Notes under the pieces: model-generated | What the model was told of the DNA's origin: nothing | Databases searched by the model: none | Seen by the model: only the letters and a program-made list of their open reading frames with translations | Source of the DNA: a virus | Taxonomy: Duplodnaviria > Heunggongvirae > Uroviricota > Caudoviricetes | Virus record (IMG/VR): IMGVR_UViG_2671180864_000013 | DNA length: 10,024 bases | Strand: one strand, 5' to 3' | Part shown: piece after piece, positions 1,101 through 10,024 of the stretch | Layout: each line of letters begins with the position of its first letter | Position numbering within the stretch: the stretch's first letter is position 1 | Position numbers and translations under genes: made by a program

Positions 1101-1180
1101 TTCCGCGCCGACCCGCCCCGTGGACAGGCCCCCCCCACCAGGAGGACCCGCAAAAAAGGCGGCTGCTGCCGCCTTGTTCT
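1101..1180. repeat. Copy A of an ~80-bp repeat (C-rich core 1112-1144 plus terminator hairpin)
   Basis: Aligns in register with 3631-3710; the 33-bp core cccgccccgtggacaggccNcccccaccaggag matches 32/33. Confidence 0.7.
1151..1175 (-). terminator. Intrinsic terminator ending the capsid operon
   Basis: Minus-strand RNA reads AAGGCGGC-AGCA-GCCGCCUU followed by UUUUG, starting a few bases after the capsid stop at 1180. Confidence 0.6.
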
Positions 1181-3060
1181 CATGAAGAAATCGCTCTGAC
1201 CATTCCGCGATAATCCAGAGCAGCAACGCCAGCATCAATGCGGACCTTCCAGGCCACACCGTCAACAATAAAGCCCTCCTGCTGCTCAAGGTAAGGCTCG
1301 TCATTACCGTCAAGATAAGCCACCTCAATTGTGTCCGTTCCCTGTGCTGAAAGCATGTACCATTGCTTATCACTGACTTCATCAAGGCGGGGATCGACAA
1401 TAATATCCAGTTGTTTGTGGTACGGGTTATATGAACCACTGTTTGTATCGGCACCGAAAGGCGTGGTTGAGTTAACCATTTGCAACGCTCTGTCTTCCAG
1501 AGCCGCAGGAACAAGAAGGAATTTTGGCACAATATTCAGCACCTCACCGTTTTCATCCCTCTGTGTGCGCATTGCACGGCGTGCAATGCCAAGCCCTGTA
1601 GTGCTGACTCCGTTATCAATATCATTTCCGTGTTTTTTGCTGAACAGCGGTATACCGTCAGAAAGCTTTGTGTTTCCTGTCAGCACCAGATGAACCAGAT
1701 TACCCACCGTTCTGGCGGCTGCTCGCCCCATTGCCTGTGGGATAACTGTTAACTGATTCAGGTCATCGTTAATAATCGCCTGTCGGGTAATGCTGAAAAT
1801 ATTTCCGTAAGTTGCCAGCGCGATTGGTTCGCCACGGTCACTGGTGGTGATGTATTTATATTCCGCGCCTTCCGGCACTTTGTTTAATGTAGAGAAGCCA
1901 TTCAGGCCAACACGACGTGCCTCATGGAAGTTTGACAATGAACCTTTTTTCGTCCACTGGCGGAACGTTTCGCCGCTGTGTTCCCATCCGGCAAGCACGG
2001 ATTTTTCAGCACCACCAGCAAGGATATAAGTAAAATCGCTGCTGCTGTGGGTGAATGCCGCGTTTACTATCTGCGAGCGTGTGCTGTAGCTGCCTGTGCT
2101 TATGCCGCGATGGGTTAATGATGCCTGTGCCATATCGAAAAGGCTCATCATGGCGTAAGGGTTGCCGCGTTCTGCCTGTTCATGTCCCAGACGCGCATTA
2201 AGCCCCTGACGCATTGCATCGCCGGTTATGTTGCCGTTATCCGTGTACGCGTAGTAAAGATTTGCGGGGGTGGTTTTGTTTGTCGGTGTCGATTCTTTAC
2301 CCATAGTGAGTAAAAGGCGTTCGCGTGCATCCTCAACGCTACAGCCTGAATCAGCAAGACAACTTATAGCCAGGTCGTTATATCTTCCATTGAACGTGCC
2401 AAACAATTCACGTATCCCGTTGAGTCGTTCCTGTTCTCCGCTGCCAGTTTTCTGGCTGATCATGCTTTTAATATTTTCCGGCATATTCGAAAAATCTCCG
2501 ATTCGTTTTGATTCAATTCTGGCCATTGCTGTAATCGCGGGTATAACCTCATCTGCGAAGCCATTAGCCTTACACTCATTGCCATCCATCCAGGTTTCCG
2601 CCTCCATCATGGCGGTGATTTCCTGTTTGCTCCTGCCCGTTCTTCCGGCGTAGGTTTCCGCCATCGTGTCGCCCAGCTTGTCCATCAGGTCAGCAAAGCG
2701 GCGAACGTCGCCCGACACTCCGGCAGTAACACCACGGGGGGCATGTATCATCATCATCGCGTTTTCAGGCATAACGATGTGATCGCCACACATGGCAATA
2801 AACGAGGCCATAGAAGCCGCCATGCCTTCAATGTGTACAATTTTCTTTGCCGGATGATTTTTCAGGGCGTTATAGATAGCCAGCCCTTCAAAGATGTCGC
2901 CACCAGGTGAATGGATGCGAAGATGGATTTCAGGCACATTACCGCACGCGTTGATCTCGTCAGTAAGTGCCGATGCTTTTACACCGTACCCGCCGATCTC
3001 GTCATAAATGCGTACATGTACAACATCAGCCATAGCCTTAATGGAAAACCATGTTTTCAT
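1180..3060 (-). CDS. Fused prohead protease (ClpP / S14-like) and HK97-fold major capsid protein, 626 aa
   Basis: N-terminal ~180 aa carry ClpP-like motifs (IHSPGGDIFEGLAIYNAL ... GMAASMASFIAMCGDHIVMPENAMMMIHAP). The C-terminal ~430 aa resemble HK97-type major capsid proteins. AGGAG RBS 8 nt upstream of the ATG at 3058-3060. Confidence 0.8.
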   Translation of the reverse strand: MKTWFSIKAMADVVHVRIYDEIGGYGVKASALTDEINACGNVPEIHLRIHSPGGDIFEGLAIYNALKNHPAKKIVHIEGMAASMASFIAMCGDHIVMPENAMMMIHAPRGVTAGVSGDVRRFADLMDKLGDTMAETYAGRTGRSKQEITAMMEAETWMDGNECKANGFADEVIPAITAMARIESKRIGDFSNMPENIKSMISQKTGSGEQERLNGIRELFGTFNGRYNDLAISCLADSGCSVEDARERLLLTMGKESTPTNKTTPANLYYAYTDNGNITGDAMRQGLNARLGHEQAERGNPYAMMSLFDMAQASLTHRGISTGSYSTRSQIVNAAFTHSSSDFTYILAGGAEKSVLAGWEHSGETFRQWTKKGSLSNFHEARRVGLNGFSTLNKVPEGAEYKYITTSDRGEPIALATYGNIFSITRQAIINDDLNQLTVIPQAMGRAAARTVGNLVHLVLTGNTKLSDGIPLFSKKHGNDIDNGVSTTGLGIARRAMRTQRDENGEVLNIVPKFLLVPAALEDRALQMVNSTTPFGADTNSGSYNPYHKQLDIIVDPRLDEVSDKQWYMLSAQGTDTIEVAYLDGNDEPYLEQQEGFIVDGVAWKVRIDAGVAALDYRGMVRAISS

Positions 3061-3251: not shown

Positions 3252-3324
3252 AAGTCTGCCTCCGTTATGATTAACGGGCATCATTATTGATCGATAAAAC
3301 TGGTAAATAAATCATTTTCTATCT

Positions 3325-3354
3325 AAAAATCAGATTATGTGTTTTCTGATTTTT
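3325..3354. promoter_or_regulatory. Perfect 10-bp inverted repeat AAAAATCAGA-N10-TCTGATTTTT upstream of the capsid operon
   Basis: Read directly; lies 70-100 bp upstream of the 64-aa ORF start. Candidate operator or leader hairpin. Confidence 0.35.
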
Positions 3355-3719: not shown

Positions 3720-4142
3720 TTAAAACGGTATGTTATCCCCGTACGGATCATCATTCCCCGCCTGTTGTTTGGCCCTGTTCAGTGCATCAGTGGCCTGCCC
3801 CTGTTGGCCTTTTTTACCGCCCGGTCGCGCCGTTCTGGCACTGATTACACTGTCTGCGATAACCTGCCAGCCCTGCCGCGTTTCTCCGTTCTGGCCTGTC
3901 CACTGGCTTACCTGCATGTTACCCGCCACGCTCACCAGCTCGCCTTTCTGGTGCTTTGCCAGTGCGTCAGCCTGTCTGCCAAACGCCAGGACGGATAACC
4001 ATATCGTCGCCGTTCCGTCATCTGCCTGGCTGCACGGCAGGGGAACCGCCATACTCGCCATCGTCATTTGCGTACCCTTGCTGGTGGTCTTTAACTGCGG
4101 GTCAGCCACCAGCCGCCCGTAAGCCGCTATCTGTGCTGTCAT
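3720..4142 (-). CDS. ssb: Single-stranded DNA-binding protein (SSB), 140 aa
   Basis: OB-fold region parallels E. coli SSB by eye (GRLVADPQL ... WLSVLAFGRQADALAKHQKGELVSVAGNMQVSQWTGQNGETRQGWQV), with a Gly/Gln-rich linker and an acidic C-terminal tail ending DDPYGDNIPF (compare DDDIPF). Confidence 0.8.
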   Translation of the reverse strand: MTAQIAAYGRLVADPQLKTTSKGTQMTMASMAVPLPCSQADDGTATIWLSVLAFGRQADALAKHQKGELVSVAGNMQVSQWTGQNGETRQGWQVIADSVISARTARPGGKKGQQGQATDALNRAKQQAGNDDPYGDNIPF

Positions 4143-4384
4143 GCTGTCTGCTCTCCGGTTTTAACGTTGATGGTTGTCACCTGTTCCGCTTCGGCAATCT
4201 CCCGTTCTGTCAGCGTGGCAAAGTTTGCCGCCGTCGTGGTCATGAATGCGCTTATCAGTTCGGGATGTGCTTTCGCGTATCCTTCCCCGGCGTTGCGGTC
4301 GATGATTTTTATCGCCACCCTCAGCCAGTGTTCTGTCAAATCAAGGGCGTGAGATTGTGGTTTTTTGGCGTGCTTCGTTGTCAC
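4139..4384 (-). CDS. Hypothetical protein (81 aa), translationally coupled to ssb
   Basis: GTG start at 4382-4384 with a GAGGT RBS 7 nt upstream; ATGA overlap with the ssb start. No recognisable motif. Confidence 0.5.
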   Translation of the reverse strand: MTTKHAKKPQSHALDLTEHWLRVAIKIIDRNAGEGYAKAHPELISAFMTTTAANFATLTEREIAEAEQVTTINVKTGEQTA

Positions 4385-4429
4385 AGGCTTTACCTCACAG
4401 CAATAAAATAAAATTTTTGCATTTTAACC

Positions 4430-4657
4430 CTTCACCTGTTCACCTTTTGCAATTTTCCCTTTTTATTCATGATGTTAATGGGTTAACAGTTTCACAAAAA
4501 CTATTCACCAACTGTTCACCACTGTTCACCCTTAAAGCTCAATAAAGAATCAAAAAGGTGAACAGTGAATAGTTTGGTGAACAGTTCATAAATAACTGTT
4601 CACCCTATAATATACTGATATAAAAGACATTTATTGCAGGGTGAACAGTGGTGAACA
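4430..4657. repeat. Replication origin candidate: eight perfect TGTTCACC / GGTGAACA octamers plus variants, with AT-rich tracts
   Basis: Forward TGTTCACC at 4437, 4513, 4523, 4597; reverse GGTGAACA at 4557, 4576, 4640, 4650; variants at 4430-4436 and 4502-4509. Two tandem pairs have 10-bp spacing. Sits immediately 3' of the primase gene. Confidence 0.7.
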
Positions 4658-4698
4658 GTTATTCCATAAGTTTAATTTTTTCCATCGTCATTTGTGAC

Positions 4699-6489
4699 CT
4701 ATGCACATGATGGCATCCAGTCTTCTGAATCCTCTGTCAGGGTCACATTTGAACGCAAACCGTGCTTCGTTTTCCGTTTCATATACTCCCTGCCATATTC
4801 CGCCATTGCCCCCGGCATATCTTTACCGAAGCGCGTCAGTGTTACAGGTTTACCGAATCCGTGTGCCCTCATATATGCCAGATAGGCGTGATAAAGATAC
4901 CTGCGCGGACTGAACGGAATAATTTCGGCATTACCCACTAACAGACCATCACACATTACCGACGACATGAGATAGCCGCAGAAGTCCACCAGCGAATCGC
5001 CCTCGCGTTTTATCACCAGAGCTTCTTCTGATTTCTGCTGCTCATACAGCAGGCGTTTAGCTTCGTCCTGGTCAGAAAAACGAGTAAGCAGGTGGCGAAT
5101 CACAACCGCCAGCTCTCCTTCTATTTTTTCTGCCAGCATGGGGTCGCGTTCGTTCTCCGGTACAACTTCCGAAAAATTGAATATCACCCGACGACGTGAG
5201 ATCCCCCCGCTGCGGTCACTGAATGACATGGCGTTATTGTTAACCGCCAGCACTACTGCCGGAATACGCGTTGAGTAGGGGGCTTTGTGTTTCGGGTCAA
5301 TTGCCACCTTGTCACCGCCTGTAATGGCCTTAATCCCTGCCCCATCACCAGCGTAGCGGGTCATATCCGGCATGATAATCAGCGAAAAGCCAACCACTAA
5401 CGCGCGTTCCCTTGCATCTTCCAGCGCCTTCATGCTTGCCGATACTGTGTTGGCCTTACCCGCCAGCATGGTGCAAATCTCCGCCATCACGCTTTTACCA
5501 CTTCCCCCTGGACCTGTTACCTCAATGAATAACTGCCAGTCGTACCGGTTCGCCAGCACCATGAATAATACAGCCAGTACGCGATCCGCCTTGCGGTCAT
5601 TCTCAGCCACCGAACGGCGTAACCACTTCCAGAAATTCGGCGCATGTGTTGCCAGCGTTTCCCCCTCTGCTGGTGGGCTGAAAGGTAATTCACTGGCAAT
5701 TAACAACCAGTCGTTTTTGTTATGCTCCCGAAAATTACCTGTTCTGGTATCAAATACCCCGTTACTGAATCCAATCAGGTTACGGGCTGTATTCCCCATT
5801 ACAGGCAAACTTAACTTCATGGTATCGACCGCCGATTTAATGGCGTTCTGCGAATAGCTGATCTCCGCATCAATGAAAATCTGTGCCATAGCTCGCTGTA
5901 ATTCTTTATCCTGTACTGGCTCCCATACAACGCCGTTGTAATGGTGAACAGTGTCAGAGTCAGCATGAATCGCCAGTTCACCGCCATAATGTGCCAGGAG
6001 AACTTCGCCGCGTTGACTTGCTCCCATCTGGTTAAGCGCCAGTGATGAAGCGTTATCGTCTTTTACCCGCTCTTTTTTCTTTACAGGCAGTTCAACTACC
6101 TTTTTCTTTTCCGCCTGCTCTGCCCGTTCACGTTCCAGATATTCGCGCCAGTTCTCCCGTTTCTGGCTGTGCATTCCTTCAGGGTAATAATCAGCATCCC
6201 TGACACCTGCCACTGCCAGTTTCTGCCCGATGGTATTAACAAGCCCCGGACGCAATAACCCCGCCTGATAGAGACGCACGCGATAGCGTCCGTCCGGTAC
6301 GATTTGCAGGTTGTCCAGTTCGGCAAGTTGTTGCTCTCCAAGCCAGACAGGTGGCACGTTATCGCCAGCCAGTCGCCCGTCCTGTTCCTGCCACTGTTTC
6401 GCATGTGCCCACGCATCACTACCCGCAAAAATGATGACTTCCGTCATTTTGTCACGCGGCTGGTGTTTTAAATTTGGCGCTTTTTTCAT
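4699..6489 (-). CDS. Replication protein: primase / SF3 helicase (P4 alpha-like, D5-type NTPase), 596 aa
   Basis: Walker A motif GPGGSGKS inside a P4-family NTPase-like region. Start taken at the ATG at 6487-6489 (GGAGAG RBS; ATGA overlap with the upstream ORF stop) rather than the GTG at 6504. Iteron origin lies directly downstream. Confidence 0.85.
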   Translation of the reverse strand: MKKAPNLKHQPRDKMTEVIIFAGSDAWAHAKQWQEQDGRLAGDNVPPVWLGEQQLAELDNLQIVPDGRYRVRLYQAGLLRPGLVNTIGQKLAVAGVRDADYYPEGMHSQKRENWREYLERERAEQAEKKKVVELPVKKKERVKDDNASSLALNQMGASQRGEVLLAHYGGELAIHADSDTVHHYNGVVWEPVQDKELQRAMAQIFIDAEISYSQNAIKSAVDTMKLSLPVMGNTARNLIGFSNGVFDTRTGNFREHNKNDWLLIASELPFSPPAEGETLATHAPNFWKWLRRSVAENDRKADRVLAVLFMVLANRYDWQLFIEVTGPGGSGKSVMAEICTMLAGKANTVSASMKALEDARERALVVGFSLIIMPDMTRYAGDGAGIKAITGGDKVAIDPKHKAPYSTRIPAVVLAVNNNAMSFSDRSGGISRRRVIFNFSEVVPENERDPMLAEKIEGELAVVIRHLLTRFSDQDEAKRLLYEQQKSEEALVIKREGDSLVDFCGYLMSSVMCDGLLVGNAEIIPFSPRRYLYHAYLAYMRAHGFGKPVTLTRFGKDMPGAMAEYGREYMKRKTKHGLRSNVTLTEDSEDWMPSCA

Positions 6490-6785
6490 TTCTGCTCTCT
6501 CCACGCGGCAATCATGTTTTTTAGTTCCTGTAGTTTTTTATCAACATCCATACATGACACATGGTTATTTCTGGAAAGCGGGATTTCCCGACTGAATCTG
6601 CTAATAAAGATCTCCACGTTCAGCGAACTAAGAAATGAATAGCCATCACGGATAAAATACACACGGTCAAACATCAGTTCTTTTACCGTTACTCTGTTAC
6701 CGTTCTTATCCAGATAAATAGCGCCGGGGATAATTTGGGGGTGTGCATAACCGCTGGCAGTCAAGCCAGATAAATACGTTCTCAT
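6486..6785 (-). CDS. Hypothetical protein (99 aa), coupled to the primase gene
   Basis: ATG at 6783-6785; its TGA stop overlaps the primase ATG. No recognisable motif. Confidence 0.5.
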   Translation of the reverse strand: MRTYLSGLTASGYAHPQIIPGAIYLDKNGNRVTVKELMFDRVYFIRDGYSFLSSLNVEIFISRFSREIPLSRNNHVSCMDVDKKLQELKNMIAAWREQK

Positions 6786-6791
6786 GATTAT

Positions 6792-7112
6792 TTATCCCCG
6801 ATTTGAATCAGTATTCGCTTTCTTTATAGCATTTAATGCATCTGTGGCATTTTCAATGGTGCACCGTAACGAAATATCAAAATGTCCAAGCATTGCCAGT
6901 AACAAACCGATATTACCCATATCAATGCGCATGGCCTTTTCGTCATAGTCCTCATTTTCTGACGCATGCCACATCAGGCTACCAATTGACGCAACAGCCA
7001 TTGATATATTGTCAGTAGCCCCATCCGCAGCGGAATAAACCTTTTTAGCAATATCATGCTCACAGTTAAAATGCGGATTAATCAGGTACTGGTAATTTGA
7101 CATATCAGGCAT
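6792..7112 (-). CDS. Hypothetical acidic protein (106 aa)
   Basis: ATG at 7110-7112 preceded by a G-run; overlaps the upstream ORF stop by 8 nt. Asp/Glu-rich. Confidence 0.5.
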   Translation of the reverse strand: MPDMSNYQYLINPHFNCEHDIAKKVYSAADGATDNISMAVASIGSLMWHASENEDYDEKAMRIDMGNIGLLLAMLGHFDISLRCTIENATDALNAIKKANTDSNRG

Positions 7113-7308
7113 GGCACCCCCCCTGACGAATACGGGCGGCGAATACCATCACGCAGCCAGCCGGGGATTGCTGGCGTGCTTCCTGTTCGCTGCTGGCCTC
7201 AATGGTAATCACGCGCGGTTGTGCCGTGCTCAGGGCGATAAAACGCCAGATGTATTTATTCAGGTTGTACGAGTCCCGCCCTTGCGGGTGTATGGTATGA
7301 TTTCTCAT
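7105..7308 (-). CDS. Hypothetical small protein (67 aa), first gene of the leftward operon
   Basis: Start taken at the internal ATG (7306-7308) with a GAGG RBS. The track ORF begins at a TTG at 7398, only 9 bp from the operator palindrome and without a clean RBS, so that extension is less likely. Confidence 0.4.
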   Translation of the reverse strand: MRNHTIHPQGRDSYNLNKYIWRFIALSTAQPRVITIEASSEQEARQQSPAGCVMVFAARIRQGGCHA

Positions 7309-7406
7309 AGCTGCCTCGATACTCTCGTTATCGTTGGTGGTTAGACGCCCCGTATGTGTTTCCGGCACTGCGGGGCGTTGCTCTTTGTATTTCAACAATC
7401 CTTTCG

Positions 7407-7505: not shown

Positions 7506-7811
7506 ATGGCAACGGCTAACAAAAACGCAAAATCACAACTGACAACTGTCAGAGTCCCACTAGATGTTATGCAAGGGATGGAATCCGTTAAGCTGGACGG
7601 CGAAAGCAATGCCGGATTTATCGTAACCGCCATGCGCGGAGAAATAGCCCGCCGCCAAGCAGAAGGCAGCGGAGAAAATCCCCTTGTGTCGTCACTGGAT
7701 GCCCTGGCTAAGGTCGAACAAATCGGCATCAAAGCAGCGGAAGAAATCGGGCAGCTTGTCACCGTTGCACGCGAAGAACTCCAGCGTCGCAAGACCAAAG
7801 AACCAGAGTAA
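7506..7811 (+). CDS. Putative ribbon-helix-helix (CopG/Arc-like) DNA-binding regulator, 101 aa
   Basis: AGGAG RBS (7493-7497) 8 nt before the ATG. N-terminus fits the RHH pattern (TTVRVPLDVMQGMESVKLDGESNAGFIVTAM). Codon usage looks coding; the opposite-strand 272-aa ORF looks like an antisense artefact. Confidence 0.55.
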   Translation: MATANKNAKSQLTTVRVPLDVMQGMESVKLDGESNAGFIVTAMRGEIARRQAEGSGENPLVSSLDALAKVEQIGIKAAEEIGQLVTVAREELQRRKTKEPE

Positions 7812-8156: not shown

Positions 8157-8366
8157 TTACGCTGCCTTACCTGAATTAATGCGATCCCGGCTTTTAACCC
8201 ATTCCATAACCTCGGACAGCAGCCAACCTACAGAACGCCCACCAAGATTACGGCGAGACGGAAAGCTCCCTTTTTTCTCCAGTTCGTAGCGTGTAGTGCG
8301 ACACACTCCAGTTAACTTACGACATTCATCCTCACGGATTACGCGATCTTCATTTATTTCACGCAT
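8157..8366 (-). CDS. alpA: AlpA-family (prophage CP4-57 regulatory protein-like) transcriptional regulator, 69 aa
   Basis: The segment RVIREDECRKLTGVCRTTRYELEKKGSFPSRRNLGGRSVGWLLSEVMEWVKSR parallels E. coli AlpA by eye. Start uncertain: ATG at 8364-8366 gives typical AlpA length but has no RBS; the GTG at 8451-8453 has an AAGAGG directly upstream and gives 98 aa. Confidence 0.75.
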   Translation of the reverse strand: MREINEDRVIREDECRKLTGVCRTTRYELEKKGSFPSRRNLGGRSVGWLLSEVMEWVKSRDRINSGKAA

Positions 8367-8785
8367 ACAAAAACCTACATAAAAATTACGTATATAAACT
8401 TTTCTCTTAGCTGTAGATATATGAGATCGGATATTACTTAGATTCTTTTTCACCTCTTAAATTAAAAACACAACCATACTAAAGGCTTTGTTCGCTAAGG
8501 TTCGTAGAAGCTCGTTAGTGTTTAAAATCGTGTCACGAGTTTTTAAGCGACGCAACAAAAAATGTCGTCATTTGGCATGTCACCTGAATTACCTCATTAA
8601 AAACAAATAGATAAACCATCAGGTGTTGGAACAATCAAGAAACAGAGAATAAGAACTCAGAAGAAGACATTTCAATTTTTTTCGATAGTTGACACATATA
8701 AAGAGAAGATATTTGCAGATATTCCCCGATATTCTAAGATCTATTCACGGCTGTAATCTCTTAAAGAAAAAACAGCCGTAATTTG

Positions 8786-10024
8786 TCAAGAATTTTGGGG
8801 GTAAATTCGCGGGGTCATAACAACGATTTTTTCATCATTGTTCTGGAGAAGCTCGAGACGGTCTACCCATAGATTAAGAGCGTCACGCTTTGCATCGAGA
8901 TAACGGGAGTGGTTATAGACGCGTTGCATTCCTGGCATCTGGTGGGCAGTAAGCTGTTCGACAATATGCGGATCCACGCCTAAATCGTTCAGCATGGTTG
9001 TAAATGTGTGCCGGATGTCGTGCAACGACCAGGGGGTTTGATTAATGCGTCTGTGTGCCGTTCTTCCGTACTCTGCTACGGATGATTGCCCTTTCAGTTC
9101 TCCAAGCAATAAGCCCGTGTGCCTGTTCTGCTCCACCAGCTTCATGACGAACGGCAAGATCGCTTCCGGTATTGGCCTGAATATTGCTACCTTCGTTTTG
9201 CTGTGTTCTTTCGGCACAGTCCAGAGCATTTCTTTAAAATCCCATTCCCGAACCTCGGAGCGTCTTAGCTCAGTGGTACGGCATCCGAAGACAATCAGAA
9301 GGCGAATTAAAGCGCTGTAGTACGGCGGGAAAATTTTTTCATCCAGTGCGCGGAGTAGCTCGCCAAGCTCCTTGTTTGTTAGCACTCGCTCGCTTATTTC
9401 TGCTTTTTTTCCCACATCACCTACGACCATATCATCAAGAACGTTACTGACGGCGTAGCGACGTTTACGGCAGTACTTAAGCGCCTGTTTGCATACCTGC
9501 AACAAAAAGCCGGCTGATACCGGATTACGCTTAGCAAGCTGGTCAAAACAGGCCAGCCAGTGGCGTAGCTCGCATTTATCCAGCGGCATAGCACCAATCT
9601 GGCTGATTATGTGCTTATTGATACGGCTTTTCAGTGATTCGTGGTCAGTGCGCTTTTCCTTCGCATACGACTCAAGCCAGTAAGTGAGCGCGTCCTTAAC
9701 CGTCACAGGGGCTAACGCTTCCTGCACTGTGTGATTAAGCTCATGGCGTGGATTTTTCCCCTCCGCCAGCCAGGCGCGACACTGTGCCGCTTTTTCCCTG
9801 GCTGCTTTCAGGCTCAGATCGGGATAGTTGCCCAGTCTCAGGCGTTCCGGTGATACCTGCCTGCCAGTTCCGGCCCTGTAAGTGAAATACCAGGTTAACA
9901 GGCCGCTGGTGGAATGTCTTACGCTAAGATTGCCACCGTCATTAAAAAAGGCGTTTTTTGTGGTTGGTGATCCGCTTAATTTTCGTAAAAGAGTGTCGCT
10001 AAGTCTATGAATTGCGCTGCTCAT
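8786..10024 (-). CDS. int: Tyrosine recombinase / integrase, P4-like, 412 aa
   Basis: N-terminal arm-binding-like region (FNDGGNLSVRH ... WYFTYR ... LGNYPDLSLKAAREKA) and C-terminal catalytic region with HDIRHT and downstream Tyr. The ATG is at the window edge, so a longer N-terminus cannot be excluded. Confidence 0.9.
   Translation of the reverse strand: MSSAIHRLSDTLLRKLSGSPTTKNAFFNDGGNLSVRHSTSGLLTWYFTYRAGTGRQVSPERLRLGNYPDLSLKAAREKAAQCRAWLAEGKNPRHELNHTVQEALAPVTVKDALTYWLESYAKEKRTDHESLKSRINKHIISQIGAMPLDKCELRHWLACFDQLAKRNPVSAGFLLQVCKQALKYCRKRRYAVSNVLDDMVVGDVGKKAEISERVLTNKELGELLRALDEKIFPPYYSALIRLLIVFGCRTTELRRSEVREWDFKEMLWTVPKEHSKTKVAIFRPIPEAILPFVMKLVEQNRHTGLLLGELKGQSSVAEYGRTAHRRINQTPWSLHDIRHTFTTMLNDLGVDPHIVEQLTAHQMPGMQRVYNHSRYLDAKRDALNLWVDRLELLQNNDEKIVVMTPRIYPQNS

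Follow-up and report, generated by a model that had tools for sequence, protein, structure and literature searches.

The iteron cluster downstream of rep

The stretch of DNA considered here, referred to below as the window, is the whole 10,024-nucleotide virus record IMGVR_UViG_2671180864_000013 of IMG/VR, and our subject is the candidate replication origin of this element, a gap of 314 bp (4385–4698) between two of its genes. The gap is bounded on one side by the stop codon (4699) of the gene for a replication protein, Rep ('DNA primase family protein'; 4699–6489, minus strand), and on the other by the start (4384) of ORF81, an open reading frame (ORF) of unknown function (4139–4384, minus strand; phrog_1231), beyond which a gene for a single-stranded DNA-binding protein (SSB) is found (3720–4142, minus strand). 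The minus-strand orientation of these genes places the gap 3′ of the gene that had been named a primase.

The first-pass annotation, made from the letters of the window alone, described the gap between the primase gene and the SSB operon as filled with eight perfect copies of the octamer TGTTCACC/GGTGAACA in both orientations, including two tandem pairs in exact 10-bp phasing, together with AT-rich tracts, and this description stood in all its parts. The exact search of both strands returned nine matches of TGTTCACC in the window, eight of which are clustered in 221 bp (4437–4657), four on the plus strand (4437, 4513, 4523 and 4597) and four on the minus strand (4557, 4576, 4640 and 4650); the spacing within the pairs 4513/4523 and 4640/4650 is exactly 10 bp in each. 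The repeat unit is in fact a 10-mer, ACTGTTCACC/GGTGAACAGT, which is present in seven of the eight perfect copies. Four degenerate copies, CCTTCACC at 4429–4436, GGTTAACA at 4481–4488, TATTCACC at 4502–4509 and AGTGAATA at 4565–4572, bring the number of iterons in the gap to 12 over 230 bp. The GC content is 33% in the gap versus 48% in the window as a whole, and the spacers between the repeats have 17–29%. The chance count of TGTTCACC per window is 0.36, and nine copies were reached in none of the 200 shuffles made, the shuffled windows containing up to three. The solitary ninth copy (5943–5950, minus strand), which is situated within the rep coding sequence, is thus within chance and was left out of the origin; no second TGTTCACC cluster was found within the window by the exact search.

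The region as a whole (4385–4698) is assigned to the minus strand, while the iterons within it are listed on the plus strand and the spacer without strand. Nearest to rep is a tandem pair GGTGAACAGT GGTGAACAGT (4640–4659, in exact 10-bp phasing), followed by an AT-rich spacer of 35 bp with 23% GC (4605–4639) and by a single iteron ACTGTTCACC (4595–4604) inverted with respect to the proximal pair, so that the spacer is flanked by convergent iterons. The least stable (lowest melting temperature) 25-mer of the entire 10-kb window is found in this spacer, at 4606–4630, and we consider the spacer to be a putative DNA-unwinding element. It also contains a motif, CAGTAnnTTA(A/T), that is conserved in the multiple alignment (window copy CAGTATATTAT, 4614–4624). 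Similar motifs are common to the spacers of the ori of satellite phage P4 (L001) and of the related loci L004, L008 and L002, whatever their iteron type, and a motif conserved across origins with different iterons is therefore no iteron itself. Further from rep there are a triplet made of GGTGAACAGT, the degenerate AGTGAATAGT and GGTGAACAGT (4557–4585; starts at 4557, 4565 and 4576), with counterparts in the triplets of the P4 ori and of EcCICFT073, three tandem iterons ACTATTCACC (one mismatch), ACTGTTCACC and ACTGTTCACC with 11- and 10-bp spacing (4500–4530), the degenerate iteron GGTTAACA (one mismatch), whose position (4481–4488) relatives keep as TATTCACC/TCTTCACC, and a distal pair in which the degenerate CCTTCACC abuts a perfect TGTTCACC with 8-bp spacing (4429–4444).

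The ORF81 start is preceded, at a distance of 53 nt, by the distal pair, and in relatives GGTGAACAGGTGAACAC is found at the equivalent place. By eye, the distal pair stands between minus-strand hexamers TTGCAA and TAAAAT, which could mean that the repeats are mainly transcriptional operators, through which Rep or another regulator controls the ORF81, SSB and capsid genes or terminates or attenuates rep transcription; initiators of iteron-containing replicons often autoregulate their own synthesis, and general knowledge thus lends this idea some weight. However, the spacing of the two hexamers, about 20 nt, is too long for a promoter, and a consensus scan of positions 4100–4800 detected neither a promoter nor a terminator on the minus strand. 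Moreover, 12 sites are spread over 230 bp around an AT-rich core, and the P4 ori has the same layout without such an operon, which fits an origin better. An operator cluster as the main function therefore appears highly improbable, though a secondary regulatory role of the iterons would be compatible with their role in the origin.

The Rep protein and the co-variation of its wing with the iterons

The rep ORF extends over 4699–6504 and encodes 601 aa, the true start being likely the ATG at 6489 (MKKAPN...). In the protein an N-terminal part predicted to be Toprim-like is followed by D5_N, a superfamily 3 (SF3) helicase domain (DUF5906) and a C-terminal winged helix. The proposal that a P4-type initiator is encoded beside the repeats is well supported by this protein: its residues 150–601 are 50% identical to residues 320–771 of the P4 alpha protein, over the D5_N, SF3 helicase and winged-helix part, and residues 502–598 (4711–5001, minus strand; Pfam Pox_D5) match the solved origin-binding domain of P4 alpha (PDB 1KA8) with E=2.3e-24. 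The 'wing' of this domain, YMKRKTKHGLRSNVTL (aa 574–589; 4738–4785, minus strand), is the segment that changes along with the iteron sequence, as described below.

We traced the name 'primase' to a sub-threshold match of TIGR01613 'primase_Cterm', which actually lies over the helicase, and because Rep lacks the Zn-ribbon/Toprim primase domain that alpha has, the label is a misnomer on current evidence. In P4 alpha the N-terminal primase part is about 320 aa long (Zn_Ribbon_Prim and Toprim_3), whereas Rep has in its place an unrelated domain of about 130 aa (6100–6489, minus strand) with a predicted Toprim-like fold; the N-terminal 165 aa gave no matches in Pfam and NCBIfam. By eye, neither the canonical Toprim glutamate nor the DxD motif can be made out, the strands ending in ...IIFAG and ...RLYQAG, and for this reason the domain may be an inactive Toprim relic. 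In E. coli, homologues of Rep residues 6–150 precede at least three kinds of C-terminal module in fusion proteins, which are D5_N/SF3 helicase, an AAA_25/RepA-type helicase and a third one.

The relatives were collected by a scan of one genome per species, which gave 72 loci, of which 21 were mapped in detail, and 26 relatives were compared, among which changes of the iteron go along with changes of the wing. The region of about 400 bp located 3′ of rep generally contains a repeated 8–10-mer in the loci examined, and in most of the 21 mapped loci the layout is conserved with 4–10 copies of the repeat, some showing weaker or no enrichment. In the P4-like locus of Erwinia rhapontici (L018) the repeats are located away from the gene. 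The core GGTGAACA occurs in the window, in the phage record vB_KppS-Ant, in Raoultella, Kluyvera, Pluralibacter, Citrobacter, Klebsiella and Serratia and in P4-like loci, while GGTAGACA is found in E. ruysiae, Kluyvera georgiana, Enterobacter and the islands EcCICFT073 and EcCIIHE3034, GCGGACAG/GTGGACAG in Serratia, GGTAGAGA in Symbiopectobacterium, GGTGCACA in Proteus and GGTGTATA/GATGTATA in Xenorhabdus. Among 5,426 complete E. coli genomes, 648 (12%) carry the allele of the window.

The wings of relatives with the same iteron are 81–88% identical to that of the window and have in common with P4 alpha the motif KRxTKxG[IL][RQ][ST]N. In those relatives with different iterons whose core winged helix (81–88% identity) and helicase (77–98%) are equally close to the window, the wing is 29–38% identical and carries a 5-residue insertion; this turnover was observed in the loci L008, L012, L013 and L015–L017, in which the iteron is GGTAGACA or GCGGACAG instead of GGTGAACA. 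A wing that recognises the variable iteron core would be expected to leave such a pattern of co-variation, which provides strong in silico evidence for the repeats being Rep-binding sites, and the wing itself, as judged from these comparisons, behaves as a specificity cassette, the turnover and insertion accompanying the change of the iteron.

The same data leave very little room for the idea that the cluster is a packaging (cos or pac) site, an arm site for the att system, or a chance or decayed repeat devoid of function. Nothing specific speaks for any of these, except that PICIs carry cos sites somewhere (PMC6092414). In eight GGTGAACA origins from six genera, column conservation is 93% in the iterons versus 55% elsewhere (p=4e-16), so the repeats are conserved while the spacers drift, and changes in the repeats go along with changes in the Rep wing. 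The two ends of the element are taken up by the att core ATGATAGTTAT, at 92–102, and, on the opposite side, by int; chance is ruled out by the expected count given above, and no Rfam family matched the region. We regard this group of explanations as extremely unlikely.

The island carrying the probable origin

The sequence features of the element indicate that it is a Gram-negative phage-inducible chromosomal island (PICI) of E. coli, of about 10 kb. This assignment rests on the presence at 92–102, near the left end of the window, of ATGATAGTTAT, the att core of the PICIs EcCIIHE3034 and EcCI18098 at cspD-clpS (PMC6092414). A relative that is 92% identical and about 10 kb long lies between clpS and cspD in E. 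coli O111:H8, and this relative and the att core together indicate that the window covers essentially the whole element. The features by which PICIs are recognised were all found, namely int and alpA, unidirectional transcription, a size of about 10 kb and a specific att site that is not used by prophages.

The PICI-like int-alpA organisation proposed in the first-pass annotation is therefore well founded: int (8786–10024) is followed by the gene of an AlpA-family regulator (8157–8453; Pfam Phage_AlpA), by several small ORFs and a DUF4222 gene (6486–6785), and then by rep, the origin, the SSB gene and a capsid gene, all on the minus strand, with the att site at cspD-clpS. ORF81 and the SSB gene (3720–4384), the order of which is the same in EcCICFT073 and EcCIIHE3034, are probably replication accessory genes transcribed by read-through from rep. 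The capsid gene is a single ORF of 626 aa that encodes a fusion of a ClpP-like prohead protease with the major capsid protein (1180–3060, minus strand; Pfam CLP_protease and Phage_capsid_4).

EcCIIHE3034 and EcCI18098 have the same att site and core ATGATAGTTAT as the window, and in EcCIIHE3034 the left-hand gene order is also the same. The latter island, however, carries an ori allele of the GGTAGACA type in spite of the common att site, from which we conclude that the replication module is exchanged as a cassette between PICIs. Unlike the window, it has separate capsid, decoration and terS genes, which indicates that modules for morphogenesis and for replication are swapped independently of each other.

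Three other places in the island deserve mention. An ORF of 97 aa (7105–7398, minus strand) matches PHROG transcriptional repressor families (phrog_6196, 1e-51), and its counterpart in relatives is annotated as an Icd-like cell-division inhibitor. It is faced by the sole plus-strand gene of the window (7506–7811, 101 aa; phrog_6522, the YlcI/YnfO family in relatives), and the two genes together may act as the island's regulatory switch. At 3285–3330, in the interval that separates the SSB block from the capsid operon, there is a second very AT-rich stretch of low stability, which may have a role as a promoter or in packaging; its 25-mers at 3303–3306 rank with the least stable of the window.

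Relation to the origins of EcCICFT073, P4 and other replicons

The closest functional counterpart is found in EcCICFT073, where the rep-ori fragment maintains a plasmid and the deletion of either ori or rep abolishes this maintenance (PMC6092414). This island has int and alpA and unidirectional transcription, as does the window, and in both the gene order is DUF4222, rep, ori, small ORF, SSB. Over the full length (596 aligned positions, E=0) the two Rep proteins are 48% identical, and in the N-terminal domain 68%. The ori of EcCICFT073 directly follows the 3′ end of rep, and its iterons agree with those of the window in number, in spacing and in their orientation around the AT-rich spacer. The two systems differ in the iteron itself, since the EcCICFT073 origin contains ten repeats of the GGTAGACAG type and no TGTTCACC (core GGTAGACAG vs GGTGAACAG in the window), and in the winged helix, which is only 33% identical and has the wing KVKGVTQTN where the window has KTKHGLRSN. 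They also differ in morphogenesis, EcCICFT073 having separate capsid and decoration genes where the window has the ClpP-capsid fusion, and in the att site, which is ycfD-phoQ in EcCICFT073 and cspD-clpS in the window.

The P4 ori can be superimposed on both. With rep on the top strand and the first iteron taken as zero, the sites are at 0, 10, 53, 74, 85, 93, 127, 137, 148 and 213 in the window, at 0, 9, 57, 77, 88, 97, 130, 141, 209 and 218 in EcCICFT073, and at 0, 10, 53, 75, 86 and 96 in the P4 ori. The orientations are the same in all three (<<, spacer, >, <<<), the window and EcCICFT073 then continuing with >>, and in the multiple alignment of the window, the P4 ori, the EcCICFT073 ori and the relatives the iterons coincide, as does the AT-rich spacer. 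Because the layouts superimpose and the regions align, the region in the window is a homologue of the other two origins in which the core of the iteron has been swapped. As the EcCICFT073 ori, with its nearly identical site architecture, supports plasmid replication (PMC6092414), the reading of the gap as an origin gained considerably from this comparison, and we consider it very probable that 4385–4698 is the vegetative replication origin, recognised by the adjacent Rep, an initiator-helicase of the P4 alpha type.

The suggestion that TGTTCACC is the type I iteron at the P4 ori and crr turned out to be accurate when the published P4 sequence was consulted. GenBank X51522 labels TGTTCACC as 'ori type 1 repeat', with six copies in ori (9310–9413), and in crr (4291–4590), directly 3′ of the alpha gene, it lists ten type 1 repeats, some of them degenerate. 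The identity includes the extended 10-mer GGTGAACAGT. The proximal pair at 4640–4659 and P4 ori 9310–9329 are the same 20-mer save for one difference in the last base, and the P4 ori has the same six-site layout and AT-rich spacer as the window. A BLAST search of the gap against phage records also found the P4 ori, the matching part being 4500–4530; a full-text literature search for TGTTCACC gave only unrelated primer matches. The initiators are similarly related, with 50% identity in the helicase and winged helix and with the wing motif in both. Binding of alpha to the type I iteron was reportedly demonstrated by Ziegelin et al. in 1993 and by Yeo et al. in 2002.

Some observations weigh against the reading of the gap as an origin. 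No primase catalytic domain was detectable in Rep. No DnaA box and no IHF consensus was found in 4385–4698; they are not required, and since P4 replication is DnaA-independent, we do not see an obstacle in their absence. Finally, the cluster located immediately 3′ of alpha in P4 is crr and not ori, so that one would expect, from the position by itself, an enhancer and not a start site. The gap might accordingly be a crr-like cis enhancer, with the true initiation site elsewhere, and the central part of the cluster (>, <<<, >) does resemble one 120-bp crr unit. However, the window represents a whole element of about 10 kb and has no other cluster, only the solitary copy inside rep, and the six rep-proximal sites fit the spacing and orientation of the P4 ori and not those of crr. 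In addition, the homologous EcCICFT073 rep together with the region 3′ of it suffices for replication (PMC6092414). An enhancer of this kind is therefore very unlikely, and we prefer the origin.

Such an origin could operate as follows. Upon induction by the helper phage, AlpA would turn on the leftward operon, as it activates the operon in EcCICFT073 (PMC6092414), and Rep would be made. The winged helix of Rep would recognise the 10-bp GGTGAACAGT, mainly via the wing, and several Rep molecules would occupy the 12 sites, arranged in inverted groups on one helical face by the 10–11 bp phasing. The SF3 helicase ring would then assemble on the 35-bp spacer at 4605–4639, bracketed by the convergent iterons, and melt it; the SSB of the element would coat the strands, and theta replication would be completed by the polymerase III of the host, which probably supplies the priming functions as well.

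An origin of this kind is a known one. PICI origins that follow pri-rep on its 3′ side, in which iterons surround an AT-rich core and the Pri-Rep is related to P4 alpha, have been characterised experimentally, and for E. coli the existence, position and iteron/AT-rich design of such origins were published in 2018, when the homology of Pri-Rep to P4 alpha was already called 'distant' (Fillol-Salom et al. 2018, ISME J, PMC6092414). In the literature accessible to us, we did not find statements that this PICI allele has the exact P4 iteron and wing motif, that PICI origins and the P4 ori have one site architecture, or that the iteron specificity follows a short wing cassette. These refinements do not overturn the current understanding and are useful rather than surprising. 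They locate the origin, and a likely code of initiator-DNA recognition, for a module that roughly an eighth of the sequenced E. coli strains carry, and they place Gram-negative PICI origins and the P4 ori in one homologous family, within which the main differences are in the iteron's 3-bp core and in the initiator wing. The GAA, AGA, GGA, GCA and GTA cores with their matching wings form a natural specificity series for the reading of DNA by winged-helix initiators.

Since this PICI allele has the 10-bp iteron in common with P4, letter for letter, and the wing motif in common with P4 alpha, cross-talk at the level of replication between these two unrelated satellite families is conceivable, although we consider it rather doubtful. 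If it takes place, the PICI origin could respond to P4 alpha, or the P4 ori and crr could be bound or titrated by the Rep of the PICI, with cross-activation, incompatibility or interference between co-resident satellites as a result. More generally, the wing would then serve as an exchangeable determinant of specificity with which PICIs evade such cross-talk.

Among other replicons, a classical iteron plasmid of the RepA/pi/TrfA type, in which initiation is assisted by DnaA, was considered as a model and rejected, there being no DnaA box or IHF site in 4385–4698 and the initiator being an SF3 helicase fusion, unlike the helicase-free Rep_3-type initiators of those plasmids. The logic and position of the origin are the same as in the Staphylococcus aureus pathogenicity islands (SaPIs), where, according to a 2007 study cited in PMC6092414, ori is directly 3′ of the initiator-helicase gene and two iteron sets flank an AT-rich melting region; the SaPI Rep presumably belongs to a different helicase lineage and acts on different iterons in Gram-positive hosts.

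The comparison with P4 extends beyond the shared iteron and shows several differences. The type II repeat array of P4 has no counterpart in the window, the ori containing one near-match to CAYTTAAAGY, which is no more than chance. The 106-aa ORF of the window has no similarity to P4 ORF106, located just upstream of alpha, which is the cnr of the P4 literature and codes for a copy-number regulator. No match to P4 sid, delta and psu was found among the 11 larger ORFs in a Pfam/PHROGs scan, in which no direct comparison was made. The repeats of the P4-like Erwinia rhapontici locus, which has an alpha ORF of 792 aa, are split, unlike those of the window, into two TGTTCACC clusters (52–144 and 6508–6610), about 1.9 kb upstream and about 2.1 kb downstream of the alpha gene; two TGTTCACC copies are also found inside that gene. 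In P4 itself ori and crr, both of which are required, are distinct cis elements with some 4.7 kb between them, whereas the window has one compact cluster. In our interpretation, the PICI origin looks like a compact version of the P4 arrangement, its rep-proximal half being like the P4 ori and its central >, <<<, > block like one crr unit.
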